DNA of 64,000 bases, taken from NCBI GenBank assembly GCA_963782125.1, contig CAWAID010000008.1, positions 114,795-178,794 of the forward strand, in the 5' to 3' direction. Positions 33,379-42,141 of the stretch are shown here, piece by piece (position 1 is the first letter of the stretch; every line of letters begins with the position of its first letter). The notes under the pieces were generated by a model. That model ran no database searches and was not told where the DNA came from. It saw only the letters and a list, made by a program, of their open reading frames with translations. The position numbers and the translations under genes were made by a program. The DNA comes from an uncultured Bacteroidota bacterium (GTDB taxonomy: Bacteria > Bacteroidota > Bacteroidia > Chitinophagales > Chitinophagaceae).

Positions 33379-34404
33379 ATGTCTGTAAACAAACTAGCCC
33401 TGATCCGCTACAAGACCATTGACGACTGTTTGACCAACCGCCGTCGTAAGTGGACGCTTGAGGATCTCATTGAAAAAGTATCCGCCGCACTCTATGAGAC
33501 CGAAGGCATTGCCAGAGGCGTGAGCCGCCGTACTGTGCAGGCAGACATCCAGCTGATGCGCTCCGACAAGCTTGGCTACAAGGCCCCAATCATCATTAGA
33601 GACAAGAAGTACTACTGCTACGAAGAAGCGGACTACAGCATCACCAAGGCTCCGATCAATAGTGCCGATGTGGAGAAGATGAGAGACATAGTAGGCGTCC
33701 TGAAGCAGTTCAATGGCTTCTCCTATTTTGATGACATGAGCGAGATGATCGCCCGCCTGGAAAACAATCTTTACAAGTCTACCAATCAAAGCCGCAATTA
33801 CATTCAGCTGGAAGGCAATCACCTGCTGAAGGGACTGGAGCATATCACACCATTGTACCAGGCCATTCTCCACCAACGGCCGCTACTCATCGAGTACAAA
33901 TCGTTCAAGGCTCAGAAATCGGGGCAGGGTATCTACTATCCTTATCTGCTAAAGGAGCACCGCAACCGCTGGTTTCTTATAGCGAGGCCTAAGAAGGGCA
34001 AGACGCTAATGACGTTGGCGCTGGACAGGATGATCGAGTTTCAGGAGCTCACCAAAGAGCCTTTTGTACCGCATCAAGGCGTTGACTTCGACCGCTATTT
34101 CAGCGAAACGATTGGCGTAACAAAGAACGAAACCGACAGGGCGCACAGGGTGATCCTCCACATAAGTAAAGATCATGCGCCCTATGTGCTTACTAAACCG
34201 CTGCATCAGTCGCAGACGCTATTAAAGGAAGACGAGCTGGGTGTTATCATTAGGATAGATGTCGTGCTGAATTTTGAGTTGGAGCGGGAGATACTTGGGT
34301 TCGGGGAATGTGTTAAAGTGCTTGCCCCGCGCTTGCTTGCTTCGCGAATCAAAAAGAGGTTTGAAAAAAGTATTGCGCGTTACCAGGAAGCGGGAGTGAA
34401 ATAA
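33379..34404 (+). CDS. BrxR/CapW-like wHTH-WYL transcriptional regulator
   Basis: N-terminal RRKWTLEDLIEKV...VSRRTVQADIQLMR wHTH and central NRWFLIAR WYL-type motif; ~340 aa. Confidence 0.6.
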   Translation: MSVNKLALIRYKTIDDCLTNRRRKWTLEDLIEKVSAALYETEGIARGVSRRTVQADIQLMRSDKLGYKAPIIIRDKKYYCYEEADYSITKAPINSADVEKMRDIVGVLKQFNGFSYFDDMSEMIARLENNLYKSTNQSRNYIQLEGNHLLKGLEHITPLYQAILHQRPLLIEYKSFKAQKSGQGIYYPYLLKEHRNRWFLIARPKKGKTLMTLALDRMIEFQELTKEPFVPHQGVDFDRYFSETIGVTKNETDRAHRVILHISKDHAPYVLTKPLHQSQTLLKEDELGVIIRIDVVLNFELEREILGFGECVKVLAPRLLASRIKKRFEKSIARYQEAGVK

Positions 34405-34577: not shown

Positions 34578-34895
34578 ATGGAGTTTAATGCGTACCAGGA
34601 AAAAGCGAAACAGACCATTCAAAAAAATGTTTCAGAAGATAAATTATCGGGAATTGTTCCCTTTTTAGGCATCATTGGGGAGATCGGCTCGGTAGTAACC
34701 CAACTAAAAATTAAGTTTAGGGATGGAGATTCATATGTTGCATTCAAGGAAAAGCTCAGTGAAGAATTAGGCGATGTTCTTTGGTATGTTTCGACAATAG
34801 CTACTCAAAATGAATTGCTGCTTGAAGATATTGCCGGCCAGAACCTGCTCAAAATCCACGATCGCTTTCTAGTTGACGATGTTTCTAGAGTATAG
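34578..34895 (+). CDS. MazG-like all-alpha NTP pyrophosphohydrolase domain protein
   Basis: EELGDVLWYVSTIA matches the MazG EExGD motif. Confidence 0.6.
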   Translation: MEFNAYQEKAKQTIQKNVSEDKLSGIVPFLGIIGEIGSVVTQLKIKFRDGDSYVAFKEKLSEELGDVLWYVSTIATQNELLLEDIAGQNLLKIHDRFLVDDVSRV

Positions 34896-35463
34896 AGATT
34901 TTGATGAATCTCACCCAAGAGCATCAAGGTTTCCGGAAGAATTTGAGATAGAGTTTGTGAGCTATGAAGAAGAAGGCAAAAACAAGATTAAAATCGTCGA
35001 TAAGCGAAATAATCAATTAATCGGAGACCCCTTGACAGACAATACATATGAGGATGATGGCTATCGGTTTCACGATATTTTTCATTACGGATACTTGGCA
35101 GTCCTTGGGTGGTCGCCGGTTCTTCGTAAACTATTGAAGATAAAAAGAAAGAGCAATGCTAAGATAGACGAAAATGAGGATGGGGCTAGATCACAGATAA
35201 CTGAAGAGTTGATTTCACTCTACATTTATCATCATGCAGTTGATCACGATTTGTTGAAGTATAGCACGAGTGTAGATTCCGGAATAATTAAAAAGGTCCA
35301 GAGTCTCGCGAAGAACACCGAGGTGAATAAATGCAGCGGTAAACAATGGGAGAAAGCGATTCTAAGTTCTTATGGGATTTTTAACCAGCTTAGGGAAAAC
35401 AACGGTGGAAGAGTGCTAGTTAGCAAGAAGAATAGATCCCTTCTTTATTTAGGAAAGAAATGA
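34873..35463 (+). CDS. Hypothetical protein (overlaps the MazG-like ORF; possibly its frameshifted C-terminal extension)
   Basis: ORF overlaps the previous gene by 23 nt in the +1 frame; no known domain. Confidence 0.35.
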   Translation: MTMFLEYRDFDESHPRASRFPEEFEIEFVSYEEEGKNKIKIVDKRNNQLIGDPLTDNTYEDDGYRFHDIFHYGYLAVLGWSPVLRKLLKIKRKSNAKIDENEDGARSQITEELISLYIYHHAVDHDLLKYSTSVDSGIIKKVQSLAKNTEVNKCSGKQWEKAILSSYGIFNQLRENNGGRVLVSKKNRSLLYLGKK

Positions 35464-35650
35464 GCTCTTGGATACTTATCTGTCTTCGAGATTAAGTCCT
35501 ATTAGTCTCAATAAGACAATGGCTTCCACAGATTAGAAACATACAATCTTGAAGGGACTATAGGGATTCGGACAGCTAACAGATAACAAAGGATGTATTC
35601 CTTTTGACACAGAAATAAAATCAATCGATCGCAGAGATTACATCGGCAGA

Positions 35651-36679
35651 ATGATATTTGAAAATAGCAACGTGACAATATTAACTAAGAAGTCGAAGCC
35701 TCATGCGAGTATAGTGCACGACACCTACTGGAAGTTCTCCGCGGAACGCCAAGAGATTTTTTTTAAGAAATTGGACGGCAAAGCGGCTCCTTGGACTGAC
35801 GACATAATACTCCTTGAGAACAAGTTCACAAACGTATATCGTGCCGCAGATCGAGTTAGTCAGTTCCTCATTAAACATGTAATATATGAAGGGCCTCAGG
35901 AGTCGGCAGAAATACTATTCAGAATCCTTCTATTCAAAACCTTCAATAAGATTGAAACATGGAAATTGCTTCAGAGTAAACTGGGGTCGATCTCGTGGGC
36001 CGAATATTCATTTAATCGGTATGCCGATATATTAAAACAGGCAACGGCCTTCGGAGAGGCAATCTATTCAGGGGCTTATATCATGGCCTCCGGTAAGAGT
36101 TCGTTCGGATATGCTCGAAAATATGAAAATCACTTAAAGCTTATCGAACGAATTCTGAATGATGAGTTGGACAAGAGAATTATTGACTGCTCTTCGATGC
36201 AAAAAATCTACGAAACGCTAATCACCTATCCGACTATTGGAAAATTCCTTGGTTATCAGTATACCATTGACATCAACTATAGCATACTGACGAATTTTAG
36301 CGAGATGGATTTTGTAGTACCTGGGCCAGGTGCTACCGATGGCATTCGAAAATGCTTTCTTTCTTTAGGCGATTATAGCGAAGCCGACGTCGTGAAATTC
36401 ATGGCCGACTCTCAAGAACTGGCATTTGAGAAACTCGGTTTGAAATTCAAAACTTTATGGGGCCGGCCGCTTCAATTAATCGACTGCCAGAATATATTTT
36501 GCGAGGTTGATAAGTATTCTCGTGTAGCCCACCCAAATATTGGGGGAGTATCTGGTCGAAAGAGAATAAAACAGAAATATCAAACAAATGGGAAGCTGCC
36601 TGTTCCATGGTATCCTCCTAAATGGGGAATAAACTCAAAAATTGAACATCATGCAGAAGGCATCGAACATCTTCATTAG
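35651..36679 (+). CDS. Hypothetical protein, first gene of the Thoeris-like operon (possible nucleotide-modification/aGPT-Pplase-like family, uncertain)
   Basis: Motif PWTDDIILLENKFTNVYRAADRVSQ recalled as similar to phage nucleotide-hypermodification Pplase-like domains. Overlaps the next ORF. Confidence 0.3.
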   Translation: MIFENSNVTILTKKSKPHASIVHDTYWKFSAERQEIFFKKLDGKAAPWTDDIILLENKFTNVYRAADRVSQFLIKHVIYEGPQESAEILFRILLFKTFNKIETWKLLQSKLGSISWAEYSFNRYADILKQATAFGEAIYSGAYIMASGKSSFGYARKYENHLKLIERILNDELDKRIIDCSSMQKIYETLITYPTIGKFLGYQYTIDINYSILTNFSEMDFVVPGPGATDGIRKCFLSLGDYSEADVVKFMADSQELAFEKLGLKFKTLWGRPLQLIDCQNIFCEVDKYSRVAHPNIGGVSGRKRIKQKYQTNGKLPVPWYPPKWGINSKIEHHAEGIEHLH

Positions 36680-37136
36680 TCATAATGGTCTTGACGACGC
36701 ACATGTCCAATCATTAAAAGACCGGTTGAGGAACCAAGGGTTCAATGTGCGTAATTTCTCGGTTGACAGTACTAACCACAAAGATGGACGGCGACCTTCT
36801 GATGAAGTTATTCGTAGACTTTTGAGTATGAGAGTCAAATGGTCTAGTACGCTCATTTGCTTAATCGGTCCGGAAACGCACAAAAGCGGTTGGGTAAATT
36901 ATGAAATCAGAAAAGCATACTTAGAGGGGAAGCCAATTGTTGGGATTTATACACATGGAAGTAAGAATTCCGTTGAACTACCAGAAGCATTTAAGAAGTA
37001 CGGACAATCGCTCATTGGATGGAATTCTGTAGAGAAACTCGGCGAGATTGTCATTGGGAAAAATGTTCCTAATGAGAATCCCGACGGAACAATGGCAAAA
37101 CCAATACATAAACTAAAGCGAGTTACTACCTGCTAG
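36651..37136 (+). CDS. thsB: TIR-like (DUF1863) ThsB-like protein 1
   Basis: IFISHNGLDDAHVQSL...SGWVNYEI pattern of the TIR-like DUF1863 domain. Confidence 0.6.
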   Translation: MQKASNIFISHNGLDDAHVQSLKDRLRNQGFNVRNFSVDSTNHKDGRRPSDEVIRRLLSMRVKWSSTLICLIGPETHKSGWVNYEIRKAYLEGKPIVGIYTHGSKNSVELPEAFKKYGQSLIGWNSVEKLGEIVIGKNVPNENPDGTMAKPIHKLKRVTTC

Positions 37137-37137
37137 T

Positions 37138-37773
37138 ATGCAATTCTATTCCTACCTTATAGATCACGATTACGGTTTAGCTCCGAATCCCTTCGGACAA
37201 TATTGTACGCTTGCTGTTTGCAAGCCGCAGATAAGAAAAAGCGGATTGCTACGCATATCGGACTGGATATTTGGGACCGGCTCTAAAGCTTTGGAAGATG
37301 TTACGCATGGAAAATTTGTGCATCGTCTTGTTTATGCTATGCAGGTCAATGAGATTCTTCCTTTAGATAAGTATTGGGATGACCCTTGATTCCAGTACAA
37401 AAAGCCAGTAATTAATGGAACGCTAATTACCATGTACGGTGATAATTTTTACCATAAAAATGAAAATGGCGATTGGACACAAGAAAATTCGGCACACTCA
37501 AACCTAGACGGCTCCGTCAATCAAGACCATCTAAATACTGACGTAGGCGGGAAAAATGTACTCATCGGGCAGCGCTATTATTATTTTGGGGCAAGCGCTC
37601 CGCTACTACCAAACCAGCTATGGAACATCTGCTACGATAGGCAAGGCGTGAAGAAGATACAGGAAGAGCCCGGCAAGAGTTTAATAACTTGGCTAGAGGC
37701 CAAATATCGACAGGGCGGGATTTACGGAGAGCCTGCGAATTGGGTAGAGTACAACCAACAAACCCTTTTCTAA
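37138..37773 (+). pseudogene. Unknown ~210-aa protein interrupted by an in-frame TGA at 37387-37389 (ORFs 37138-37389 and 37432-37773 share one frame)
   Basis: The same frame is open across the single TGA; conserved-looking N-terminus HDYGLAPNPFGQYCTLAVCKP. Confidence 0.5.
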
Positions 37774-37813
37774 CCGCAGGCAATCATCGCCTATATAGAG
37801 AAATCCCCTACTA

Positions 37814-38362
37814 ATGGCAATATTTACGAAGTCTCAATTTGAGTCAATAGCAAAGTCAAGAACTGGTTTAGCCGACTTCAAAGCGGTCAACATGTTTGAA
37901 AGCCGCAAGTTTTCCAAGTCTAGTTCAACAACAAGCATTTTCCTTTCCCACTCTCACGTCGATCAAGTAGTAGTAGCACAAGCAAAGGGCTTTTTTGAGA
38001 CCCTTGGGATTAGCATTTACATTGACTGGGCCGATGAAACTATGCCAGAAAAAACAAACGGGGTTACCGCGTCAAGAATAAAGTCAAAAATTCTTAGCAA
38101 TGATAAGTTTATCCTGTTAGCAACAAATGCAGCCGTGTCTTCTAAGTGGTGTAACTGGGAGGTCGGCATTGGAGACGTATATAAATTAAATTCTGACAAA
38201 ATCTGCATACTCCCGCTTGCGGATAACAATGCAACATGGCTCGGCAATGAGTACCTGCAAATCTATCCAAGAGTAGAGCCGGTTGAGAACTACAGCAACA
38301 TTTTTAGGGTAATTTACCCAGATGGAAAAGTCGACTGGCTTCACGAATGGCTAAAAAAGTAA
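37814..38362 (+). CDS. thsB: TIR-like (DUF1863) ThsB-like protein 2
   Basis: IFLSHSHVDQVVVAQ...SKWCNWEVGIG TIR-like signature. Confidence 0.65.
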   Translation: MAIFTKSQFESIAKSRTGLADFKAVNMFESRKFSKSSSTTSIFLSHSHVDQVVVAQAKGFFETLGISIYIDWADETMPEKTNGVTASRIKSKILSNDKFILLATNAAVSSKWCNWEVGIGDVYKLNSDKICILPLADNNATWLGNEYLQIYPRVEPVENYSNIFRVIYPDGKVDWLHEWLKK

Positions 38363-39612
38363 TCATGGAATTCACCAGTCAACAAAAGACCTTTATAAAT
38401 GTTTACGCGGCCGAAATCTTAAATGGCGATGCGGCAATTTTTGCCGGCGCTGGGCTGTCAGCTTCTTTAGGTTTCGTGAATTGGAAAGAACTATTAAAGG
38501 ATTTAGCCGATGAGCTCAATTTGAAAATTGAGAAGGAGCACGATTTGATCTCTGTGGCCCAATATCATTTCAACAAGTTCAAAAGAGGCAAAATAAACAC
38601 TAAGATCATCAATGAGTTTACCAGCCTTTCTGTGGGGAGCGAGAATCACAAAGTCCTTTCTCGAATTGGGATTGATACTTTTTGGACAACAAATTATGAC
38701 CAGCTCATTGAAAGAACTTTAGAAGCAGAAGGTAAAACCGCAGAAAAGAAGGTCCGGAACGAAGATTTTTCAAGAAACATCAAAAAGAAAGATGCAGTTG
38801 TCTACAAGATGCATGGGGACAAAGATTCACCGGATGAAGCAATCCTAACTAAGGATGACTACGAAACCTACAACGACAAAAAAGAATTATTTTCTACAGC
38901 ACTTAGGGGAGATTTGCTGTCAAAAACTTTTCTATTTATTGGGTTCAGCTTTGATGATCCGAACCTGGACTACATACTGGGTAGAATAAAGGTGCTATTG
39001 AAAGATAACACCCCAACACACTACTGTTTTTTCAGAGAAATTGCTGAGAAAGACTTCAGCGATCCTAAAAAGACAGCGGAAGAGAACAAAGAAGACTATC
39101 TCTATGCGAAAATTAAGCAGACGCTAAAAATAGATGATTTGGTCAGGTATGGAATTCATGCTATTATGGTGAAGGAGTATACTGAGATCACTGACATTCT
39201 TTTTGAAATAGAAAAGCGGGTGAAGAGAAAGAATATTTTCATTTCCGGTGCCGCCTGCACCTATGATCCATTTTCCGAAGAGCAAGCCAAAGACCTAATC
39301 CATTCATTGAGTTTTAAGCTAGCCGAAAAGGAGTATAAGATTGTATCAGGTTACGGCACTGGAATAGGCAGCATTGTTATTAACGGAGCCCTAGACTTTA
39401 AGTTGAACTCAAAATTTCGGAATCTAGATGATTTGCTAATCCTTAGACCGTTTCCCCAAATACAATCGGGAGGAGCAAGAATAAAAGATGTATGGACGCA
39501 ATATCGAATTGAAATGATTTCAAAAGCAGGAATTGCAATTTTTGTCTTTGGAAATAAGAGACTAGAAGACGGAACGGTTGGCAATTCAGATGGTATGTTG
39601 GAGGAATTCTAG
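38347..39612 (+). CDS. thsA: Thoeris ThsA (SIR2 domain plus SLOG domain), ending at an in-frame TAG
   Basis: SIR2 motifs IFAGAGLSASLGFVNW, TTNYDQL and YKMHGD; SLOG ISGAACTYDP...VSGYGTGIG. Confidence 0.75.
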   Translation: MAKKVIMEFTSQQKTFINVYAAEILNGDAAIFAGAGLSASLGFVNWKELLKDLADELNLKIEKEHDLISVAQYHFNKFKRGKINTKIINEFTSLSVGSENHKVLSRIGIDTFWTTNYDQLIERTLEAEGKTAEKKVRNEDFSRNIKKKDAVVYKMHGDKDSPDEAILTKDDYETYNDKKELFSTALRGDLLSKTFLFIGFSFDDPNLDYILGRIKVLLKDNTPTHYCFFREIAEKDFSDPKKTAEENKEDYLYAKIKQTLKIDDLVRYGIHAIMVKEYTEITDILFEIEKRVKRKNIFISGAACTYDPFSEEQAKDLIHSLSFKLAEKEYKIVSGYGTGIGSIVINGALDFKLNSKFRNLDDLLILRPFPQIQSGGARIKDVWTQYRIEMISKAGIAIFVFGNKRLEDGTVGNSDGMLEEF

Positions 39613-39828
39613 TTGTGCCTACAAAATAATGTTATCCCTGTGCCTATCGGCACTACTGGCTCTGTCTCAAAACAATTATGGAACAAAGTCGTTGAAAATT
39701 TGGGCACGTTTTATCCCCAAAGCGATGACTTACATGATGCTATTAAAGAGCTAGGAGTAGACGGGCTTGCAATAGATGACATTATCACTAACACGATAAA
39801 AGCAATCGGTATTTTGCAAAAATCATAG
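39613..39828 (+). CDS. thsA: C-terminal remainder of the ThsA SLOG domain, in frame after the TAG stop
   Basis: NVIPVPIGTTGSVSKQLWNKV continues the SLOG fold; same reading frame as 38347. Confidence 0.55.
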   Translation: MCLQNNVIPVPIGTTGSVSKQLWNKVVENLGTFYPQSDDLHDAIKELGVDGLAIDDIITNTIKAIGILQKS

Positions 39829-39970
39829 TCATGGTCGACGCTTAACCATGCCATCGTAAATAATCCTAGCATGTTTCACTTAGCGAGTTAGGCATTGAGA
39901 CTTTCTACGTTCTTTGTTCAAGGAAACGTCGAGATTTAGGTAGATAGACAATTGGTTCAATGGTACTCAC

Positions 39971-40153
39971 ATGACGATATTTGGTGTCAATATTTGGGAA
40001 ATAGCATTTTTCGTGCTACTTGTTGGAATAATGATCACCATCCTCCCAATCATTTTTGCGTTCAGGAAGAAGATAAACCTTGACACACCAAAGTATTGGT
40101 TTAAAGAAGCCGATTTCCTTGGGCAAGAAAAAAGAAAGACTTATCGCCAATGA
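39971..40153 (+). CDS. N-terminal TM segment of a SLATT-like 2TM protein (frameshift at A6 run ~40128)
   Basis: One TM helix; ORF ends just after caagaaaaaagaaag, where the next ORF frame takes over. Confidence 0.4.
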   Translation: MTIFGVNIWEIAFFVLLVGIMITILPIIFAFRKKINLDTPKYWFKEADFLGQEKRKTYRQ

Positions 40154-40562
40154 AGGACGCATACATGGGACATTGCTATACTGGAAAAACCAAGCTGCAG
40201 CTCATAAAAAGCTACACGATGCAAATATTTTTTGGGGATTGCTGTCTTCAGTAAGCTTACCAGTGCTAGTTCAATTTTACGATAAGGACAATTTGTGGGC
40301 TACAGCTTTCATGACTGTATTGACGTTTTGGACAGGCCTAATTTTCGCAATTGCCTTTACGCTAAAATCTGAATCTAAATATCAAGGGTTCCGAGCATCA
40401 GAATCTGATTACTATGATATAACTCGCATCTTATTGGATACTCCGGAAAGAGAACCTATCAAGCTAAAAACTCTGGTGAACGATTACATTGAGACAGTAG
40501 AAAAGATTAGAAAAATGGCTAGACGAGTTGAGACAGGCATACCACCATCGATTAAATTATAG
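40080..40562 (+). CDS. SLATT-like two-TM effector domain protein
   Basis: Two TM helices separated by a short loop; sits between ThsA (SLOG) and a TIR gene, as described for SLATT. Confidence 0.5.
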   Translation: MTHQSIGLKKPISLGKKKERLIANEGRIHGTLLYWKNQAAAHKKLHDANIFWGLLSSVSLPVLVQFYDKDNLWATAFMTVLTFWTGLIFAIAFTLKSESKYQGFRASESDYYDITRILLDTPEREPIKLKTLVNDYIETVEKIRKMARRVETGIPPSIKL

Positions 40563-40645
40563 GCAATAGCAGCTGAACGCGTATATTCTCAGAAGAACAG
40601 TTAGACTCTTCAAGTAGCAATCTAAATCCTATAAGGAACAATCCT

Positions 40646-41137
40646 ATGGCAAGACGAGTATTTTTTAGCTTCCACTATGAAAATGACGTGTGGAGGGTGA
40701 ATGTTGTAAGAAATAGTTGGGTTACTCAACATGGAAATGAAGCAGCAGGCTTCATTGATGCTGCTGCATTTGAGGAAGTAAAGAAGAAGGGCGACACCAA
40801 CATTAAGAATTGGATTGATAGTCAGCTTTCAGGGACGTCCGTCACTGTCGTTCTTATAGGATCACAGACAAATCAACGAGACTACGTAAAATACGAACTC
40901 TCAAAAAGCTATCAAAAGGGAAATGGAATTTTAGGCATCTACATTCATGGCATAAAGGATATAAACGGTAACATCTCTGTAAAGGGTTCAAACCACTTTG
41001 GTGAAATAGGGAAAGACGAGAAAGGGAATTCTGTCTACTTGAGCTCAAATTATCATTGCTATGATTGGATTGCGGACGATGGTTATAATAACTTGGGAGG
41101 TTGGATTGAGCAAGCGGCAAAAAGCGCTTCAAAATGA
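40646..41137 (+). CDS. thsB: TIR-like (DUF1863) ThsB-like protein 3
   Basis: VFFSFHYENDVWRVNVVRN hallmark of DUF1863/ThsB. Confidence 0.7.
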   Translation: MARRVFFSFHYENDVWRVNVVRNSWVTQHGNEAAGFIDAAAFEEVKKKGDTNIKNWIDSQLSGTSVTVVLIGSQTNQRDYVKYELSKSYQKGNGILGIYIHGIKDINGNISVKGSNHFGEIGKDEKGNSVYLSSNYHCYDWIADDGYNNLGGWIEQAAKSASK

Positions 41138-42141
41138 ACAGCACGACAATTGCGGAATTACAAATAGAGTATAATAAAAAACTCCCTCTCTTCCATCGAG
41201 CATTAAAAAATACGGTCGATGCCCTTGAACTGTTCATGGAAGAGCATAACATTTTGCATTTGGTGATAACTGGAAGAATCAAATCGTTTGAATCATTCGC
41301 ACAAAAGGTTGACAGAAAAAATTATAAAGACCCTTTTGTTGAAAATGAGGATTTCTGTGGAATCAGAATTATTGTCTTTTACCCGAGCGACATAAATGCT
41401 GTTCAGGAAATTATTGACACTGAATTTCAGATTGTTGAATCATTTGACAAAGTTGACTCACTAGAGGCGAATGAGTTTGGCTATCGATCGAAACACTCAA
41501 TAGTTATGATTAAGGATGAGTGGCTGAGCAGCCCTAATTATCGGAGTTTACAAGGAGTAAAAATCGAAATTCAGGTAAGGACAATTCTGATGCATGCTTG
41601 GGCTGAAATAGAACATAAGCTTGCCTACAAAAATGCGAACCAAATTCGTAAGGATGTCAAAAGACAACTTGCTAGAATCAGTGCTCAACTCGAAACAACG
41701 GATGAACAGTTTCAGAATCTTAAAGACAGTATTCAGAGCTACCAAGACGACATTAAACTAAGCGTACAAATTAGTAAAGCAGTACCTGCCACCGCAGATT
41801 TAGACTATGACAGCGTAAACGCTCTTCTCGAATACTACTTGCCGGACCTTCCTAATAATCGTGGGAATTTAATAAGAGTAATGGAGAGGCTGGCTAATAA
41901 TCACTACAGCCTGTCCAAAGTGGAAGAATTACTTAAGAAAATAAGGCCCTACATACTTGCCATTAATGAAGCGGTCTTTCCACGGAAGGAGTTATCCTTG
42001 ACTCGCGCCACTATCCTCGGCTACGCGATGGACATTTTTGAGGGCTATGATTCAAGTCCAACTGTGGCTTATTCCGAAACTCGGCGAACTGTTGTCGAAG
42101 CATTCAGGAAAATAGTTTCGGAAGTAAATGACGGAAGCTAA
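41134..42141 (+). CDS. RelA/SpoT-domain nucleotide pyrophosphokinase (toxSAS/CapRel-like) with ~150-aa C-terminal extension
   Basis: GRIKSFESF, CGIRIIVFYPSD, YRSKHSIV and EIQVRTILMHAWAEIEHKLAYK RSH synthetase motifs. ATGA overlap with thsB3. Confidence 0.75.
   Translation: MNSTTIAELQIEYNKKLPLFHRALKNTVDALELFMEEHNILHLVITGRIKSFESFAQKVDRKNYKDPFVENEDFCGIRIIVFYPSDINAVQEIIDTEFQIVESFDKVDSLEANEFGYRSKHSIVMIKDEWLSSPNYRSLQGVKIEIQVRTILMHAWAEIEHKLAYKNANQIRKDVKRQLARISAQLETTDEQFQNLKDSIQSYQDDIKLSVQISKAVPATADLDYDSVNALLEYYLPDLPNNRGNLIRVMERLANNHYSLSKVEELLKKIRPYILAINEAVFPRKELSLTRATILGYAMDIFEGYDSSPTVAYSETRRTVVEAFRKIVSEVNDGS

Follow-up and report, generated by a model that had tools for sequence, protein, structure and literature searches.

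The region 34578-42141 of the window (the whole stretch of 64,000 nucleotides that was analysed) is best explained as separate anti-phage modules lined up head to tail rather than as one system, and we assign this reading a probability of about 0.6. The upstream module (34578-37773) comprises MazG/MazG_C, HMUDK_hel, TIR1 and Nmad2 and appears to be a variant of the DS-4 system. The downstream module (37814-39828 and 40646-42141) has the gene order thsB'-thsA-thsB-RSH and seems to represent a type I Thoeris system with a RelA/SpoT add-on. The genes of this block and the regulator gene preceding it are:

33379-34404, + strand: WYL-WCX transcription regulator gene (Pfam WYL 8e-11, WCX 1.9e-08; PADLOC WYL 6e-25)
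34578-34895 and 34873/34879-35463, + strand: MazG and MazG_C in two overlapping frames (Pfam MazG 6e-06, MazG_C 1.4e-65)
35651-36679, + strand: HMUDK_hel (Pfam HMUDK_hel 3.7e-109)
36642/36651-37136, + strand: TIR1, ThsB-like TIR of the DS-4-like module (ThsB_TIR 7e-19)
37138-37773, + strand: Nmad2, interrupted (Pfam Nmad2 3.3e-64 across an in-frame TGA at 37387-37389)
37814-38362, + strand: TIR2 (thsB'), ThsB-type TIR directly upstream of thsA (PADLOC ThsB PDLC00436 1.8e-60, TIR_2 8e-08)
38347-39828, + strand: thsA (SIR2 and STALD/SLOG), interrupted (SIR2_2 4.9e-30, STALD 2.6e-68, PADLOC ThsA 2.4e-189)
39971-40562, + strand: SLATT-like gene with three transmembrane (TM) segments, frameshifted (frames 39971-40153 and 40080-40562)
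40646-41137, + strand: TIR3, thsB of the B. cereus MSX-D12 ThsB type (ThsB_TIR 2e-25; PADLOC ThsB PDLC00431 8e-69)
41134-42141, + strand: RelA/SpoT-type pyrophosphokinase, RSH (RelA_SpoT 1.3e-21; its ATG overlaps the TIR3 stop as ATGA)

The HMM searches bear out the preliminary description with regard to the three ThsB-type TIR genes, the SIR2-SLOG protein ThsA and the RelA/SpoT gene whose ATG overlaps the stop of the preceding TIR gene. The two genes it had left as unknown are HMUDK_hel and Nmad2, and its nine genes are eight by its own list. Every gene of the block has the same orientation, and the co-oriented block reaches upstream to MazG/MazG_C and the WYL gene, which lies 173 nt away, has a GC content of 0.50 versus 0.40 in the block and is regarded as a candidate regulator only. 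Most junctions had been thought to overlap by 1-38 nt; the actual number is three of seven (HMUDK/TIR1 29-38 nt, TIR2/ThsA 16 nt and TIR3/RSH 4 nt), with a 1-nt gap between TIR1 and Nmad2 and gaps of 40, 142 and 83 nt at the remaining positions. The overlaps and the 1-nt gap fall inside modules and the three larger gaps separate them. No convincing terminator was found between the modules, and in combination with the shared orientation this would permit read-through transcription and functional cross-talk, which speaks against a strict separation. The block, with a measured GC content of 40.3% instead of the ~35% given before, sits in a low-GC stretch that starts at a tRNA-Pro and carries defence systems one after another.

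The assignment of the upstream module is based on comparison with DS-4 ('NTTI'), an E. coli system validated experimentally by DeWeirdt et al. (Science 2026, PMC13092281), in which the first two genes encode a thymidylate synthase and a dNMP kinase. The order HMUDK_hel-TIR-Nmad2 corresponds to DS-4 genes 3-5, with similar protein lengths (342/164/211 aa in the window, 340/163/220 aa in DS-4) and identities of 27% for HMUDK_hel (WP_087900470.1, 1.5e-25), 39% for TIR1 (WP_072044445.1, 1.3e-34) and 38% for Nmad2 (8e-46). TIR1, which contains a W-x-x-x-E motif as read from the sequence, likely starts at ATG 36651, resulting in a 29-nt overlap with the HMUDK stop. In contrast to DS-4, MazG/MazG_C takes the place of the thymidylate synthase and the dNMP kinase, and Nmad2 carries a nonsense codon. 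The arrangement DCD-MazG_C-HMUDK-TIR-Nmad2 is found in Olivibacter (L171) without ThsA, and neither HMUDK nor Nmad2 nor MazG was detected in the flanks of any other locus combining Thoeris and RSH. The first three genes of the supposed single multi-effector system belong to a validated system type that occurs elsewhere without ThsA.

The core of the downstream module resembles type I Thoeris, which consists of a SIR2-SLOG ThsA and ThsB and is known from B. cereus MSX-D12 (Doron 2018, Ofir 2021). ThsA has both the SIR2_2 and the STALD domain and retains the TNYD and MHGD motifs, and TIR3 is a close homologue of B. cereus ThsB (PDB 6LHY/9B7D, 3.8e-41) with a conserved catalytic Glu equivalent to E85. 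Like Thoeris systems with multiple thsB copies, the module contains another ThsB-type gene; orthologues of this TIR2 with 31-43% identity occur in L001, L003, L084, L166 and L168. The window differs from type I Thoeris by the RSH gene translationally coupled to thsB, by the 3-TM gene between thsA and thsB and by the in-frame TAG in thsA.

Damage to four genes of the block (Nmad2, thsA, the SLATT-like gene and MazG/MazG_C) had been overlooked before. The TGA of Nmad2 aligns with an Arg in the 'EDNRF' motif of DS-4 Nmad2. The TAG of thsA (39610-39612), which as written cuts 71 residues from the end of the SLOG domain, aligns with Glu/Gln in ThsA of L168, L003 and L084. In the SLATT-like gene an extra A in an A-run near 40127-40132 disrupts the reading frame, and contiguous homologues of 191-200 aa with up to 79% identity span both frames. 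MazG/MazG_C relatives are single polypeptides of ~295 aa; the concatenated halves align over their full length (1-294 to 1-293) with a protein of 294 aa at 55% identity and also match many proteins of ~290-300 aa, and the break can only be placed to a variable linker. As MazG_C stands alone in L171, this split may be tolerated. Due to these lesions the locus as sequenced is probably partly non-functional, and since ThsA, Nmad2 and the SLATT-like gene all carry interruptions, the stoichiometric co-expression proposed earlier is untenable as worded. We consider it about an even chance that the block is a decayed, non-functional remnant or, alternatively, that assembly errors in AT-rich sequence hide a locus that is intact in the organism. 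The accumulation of four lesions within the block, the splitting of AbiLi and ZorA elsewhere in the same island and the location of the only placeable frameshift in an A-run point in this direction. On the other hand, both nonsense codons are substitutions and not homopolymer indels, long open reading frames look intact in the 25 kb left of the tRNA, and HMUDK, the three TIR proteins and RSH retain their full length and catalytic motifs.

RSH is composed of a SAS-like catalytic domain, whose motif residues are invariant across the family, and an all-helical C-terminal domain of ~120 aa (AF2 model, pLDDT 89), and no domain for ligand sensing, for example SLOG or Macro, is recognisable in it. 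The proposed adjacency of TIR and RSH is conserved across other genomes, with TIR3 orthologues of 63-76% identity directly upstream of RSH. The complete order TIR2-ThsA-TIR3-RSH is repeated in L168 and L084, and variations thereof are present in L003 (ThsA-TIR2-TIR3-RSH) and L048 (ThsA-TIR3-RSH-TIR). Type III Thoeris reportedly combines a ThcA SLOG protein with several ThcB TIR proteins. In L001 and L166, where ThcA and ThcB4 score above NCBIfam cut-offs, such systems harbor a thsB-RSH pair from the same clade as that of the window, whereas the window has neither ThcA nor ThcB4. Altogether the pair was found in seven distinct loci, four of them also with ThsA and two in type III Thoeris, which may share one ancestral cassette so that these counts are not independent events. 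TIR3 stands upstream at eight of the nine distinct places outside the window where RSH identity reaches 50% or more (L167 is a repeat of L166 in this count), and the spacing in the six measurable loci (the window and five intact ones) is -4, 2, 2, 5, 11 and 12 nt. Furthermore, TIR3 and RSH yield identity matrices with the same clustering, and the window with its type I context pairs with L001 and its type III context. Judged from sequence comparison, it is fairly likely that thsB-RSH is a co-evolving unit attached to SLOG-effector Thoeris of types I and III. The literature searched, which did not cover the original type III Thoeris paper, contained no description of a RelA/SpoT gene as a Thoeris component.

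It is possible, but rather unlikely, that RSH acts autonomously as a single-gene toxin of abortive infection with a logic like CapRel or mycobacteriophage gp29, kept near Thoeris as complementary defence without signal or protein contact with ThsB. More distant RSH relatives are solitary: 153 further loci had no matches to other window proteins, and no neighbour recurred in more than 8 of 162 loci. Both the 55% identical RSH of L002 and a 336-aa homologue carried as cargo by a Vibrio filamentous phage (inovirus) are solitary, so RSH may work on its own. Solitary and TIR-linked members have the same architecture of a synthetase followed by a variable C-terminal domain, and RSH matches the PADLOC single-gene candidate PDC-S33 (1.2e-16). 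Toxins of the toxSAS, CapRel and phage gp29 type likewise join a small RelA/SpoT synthetase domain to an additional C-terminal one and occur in defence islands or on mobile elements. Unlike these, RSH is nearer to the housekeeping enzymes RelQ/RelP, its closest solved relatives (1.9e-19), than to CapRel in sequence and fold (target-normalised Foldseek TM 0.75-0.83 versus 0.38-0.41), its all-helical C-terminal domain found no PDB match, and its partner gene encodes a TIR protein. To our knowledge, TIR is not among the known antitoxin classes. An autonomous RSH is also difficult to reconcile with a thsB spacing that keeps to -4 to 12 nt even where RSH identity drops to 52%, with the congruent matrices, and with the persistence of the pair while partner system (type I or III) and gene order change.

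The SLATT-like gene, described before as a two-TM SLATT partner of the system, encodes a 3-TM protein without a Pfam or PADLOC match above threshold; weak matches to SLATT_1 (best 0.0017) and DUF4231 were each obtained for five of 15 homologues, and the AF2 model (pLDDT 85) is all-helical with TM helices. The cassettes L084 and L168, identical in other respects, have no such gene between thsA and thsB. No TIR gene neighbours its homologues in the four other contexts, and we assume, with some reservation, that the SLATT-like gene is an insertion in this locus only. Type VII Thoeris combines a TIR protein with the SLATT protein ThsH and the canonical cADPR signal (Yirmiya et al. 2025 preprint). 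In the window, too, a ThsB-type TIR gene adjoins a gene for a small helical protein with several TM segments, but the latter is frameshifted and has only sub-threshold SLATT matches, and neither gene's homologues preserve the pairing. A single integrated operon of all eight to ten genes, in which three TIRs feed ThsA, a SLATT-like pore and RSH, possibly with a pyrophosphorylated signal, would fit the co-oriented genes with short spacers and the known swapping of effectors by TIR families, yet it is very improbable since the DS-4 type occurs separately in E. coli and in L171, since L168 and L084 lack both the DS-4 genes and the SLATT-like gene, and since tight junctions are restricted to within modules.

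The stacked modules are reminiscent of Liu-DS6, in which Pycsar and type IV Thoeris share one operon with reported synergy (PMC13069673). The window likewise has two signalling defence modules in one co-oriented operon, but the modules differ, and the synergy is that of Liu-DS6. In Parapedobacter (L169) the DS-4-type genes HMUDK, thymidylate synthase and Nmad2 are intermingled with a SLOG gene and four TIR genes, a combination that also favors an integrated system; modules of the DS-4-like and TIR/SLOG kinds may thus work together beyond being island neighbours.

By analogy with established Thoeris biology, ThsB would sense infection and produce 3'cADPR, which would bind the SLOG domain of ThsA and switch on NAD+ depletion by SIR2. 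What is new in the locus is the addition of thsB-RSH to SLOG-type Thoeris. RSH might constitute a putative second growth-arrest arm coupled to ThsB, which would pyrophosphorylate a nucleotide or tRNA upon infection sensing.

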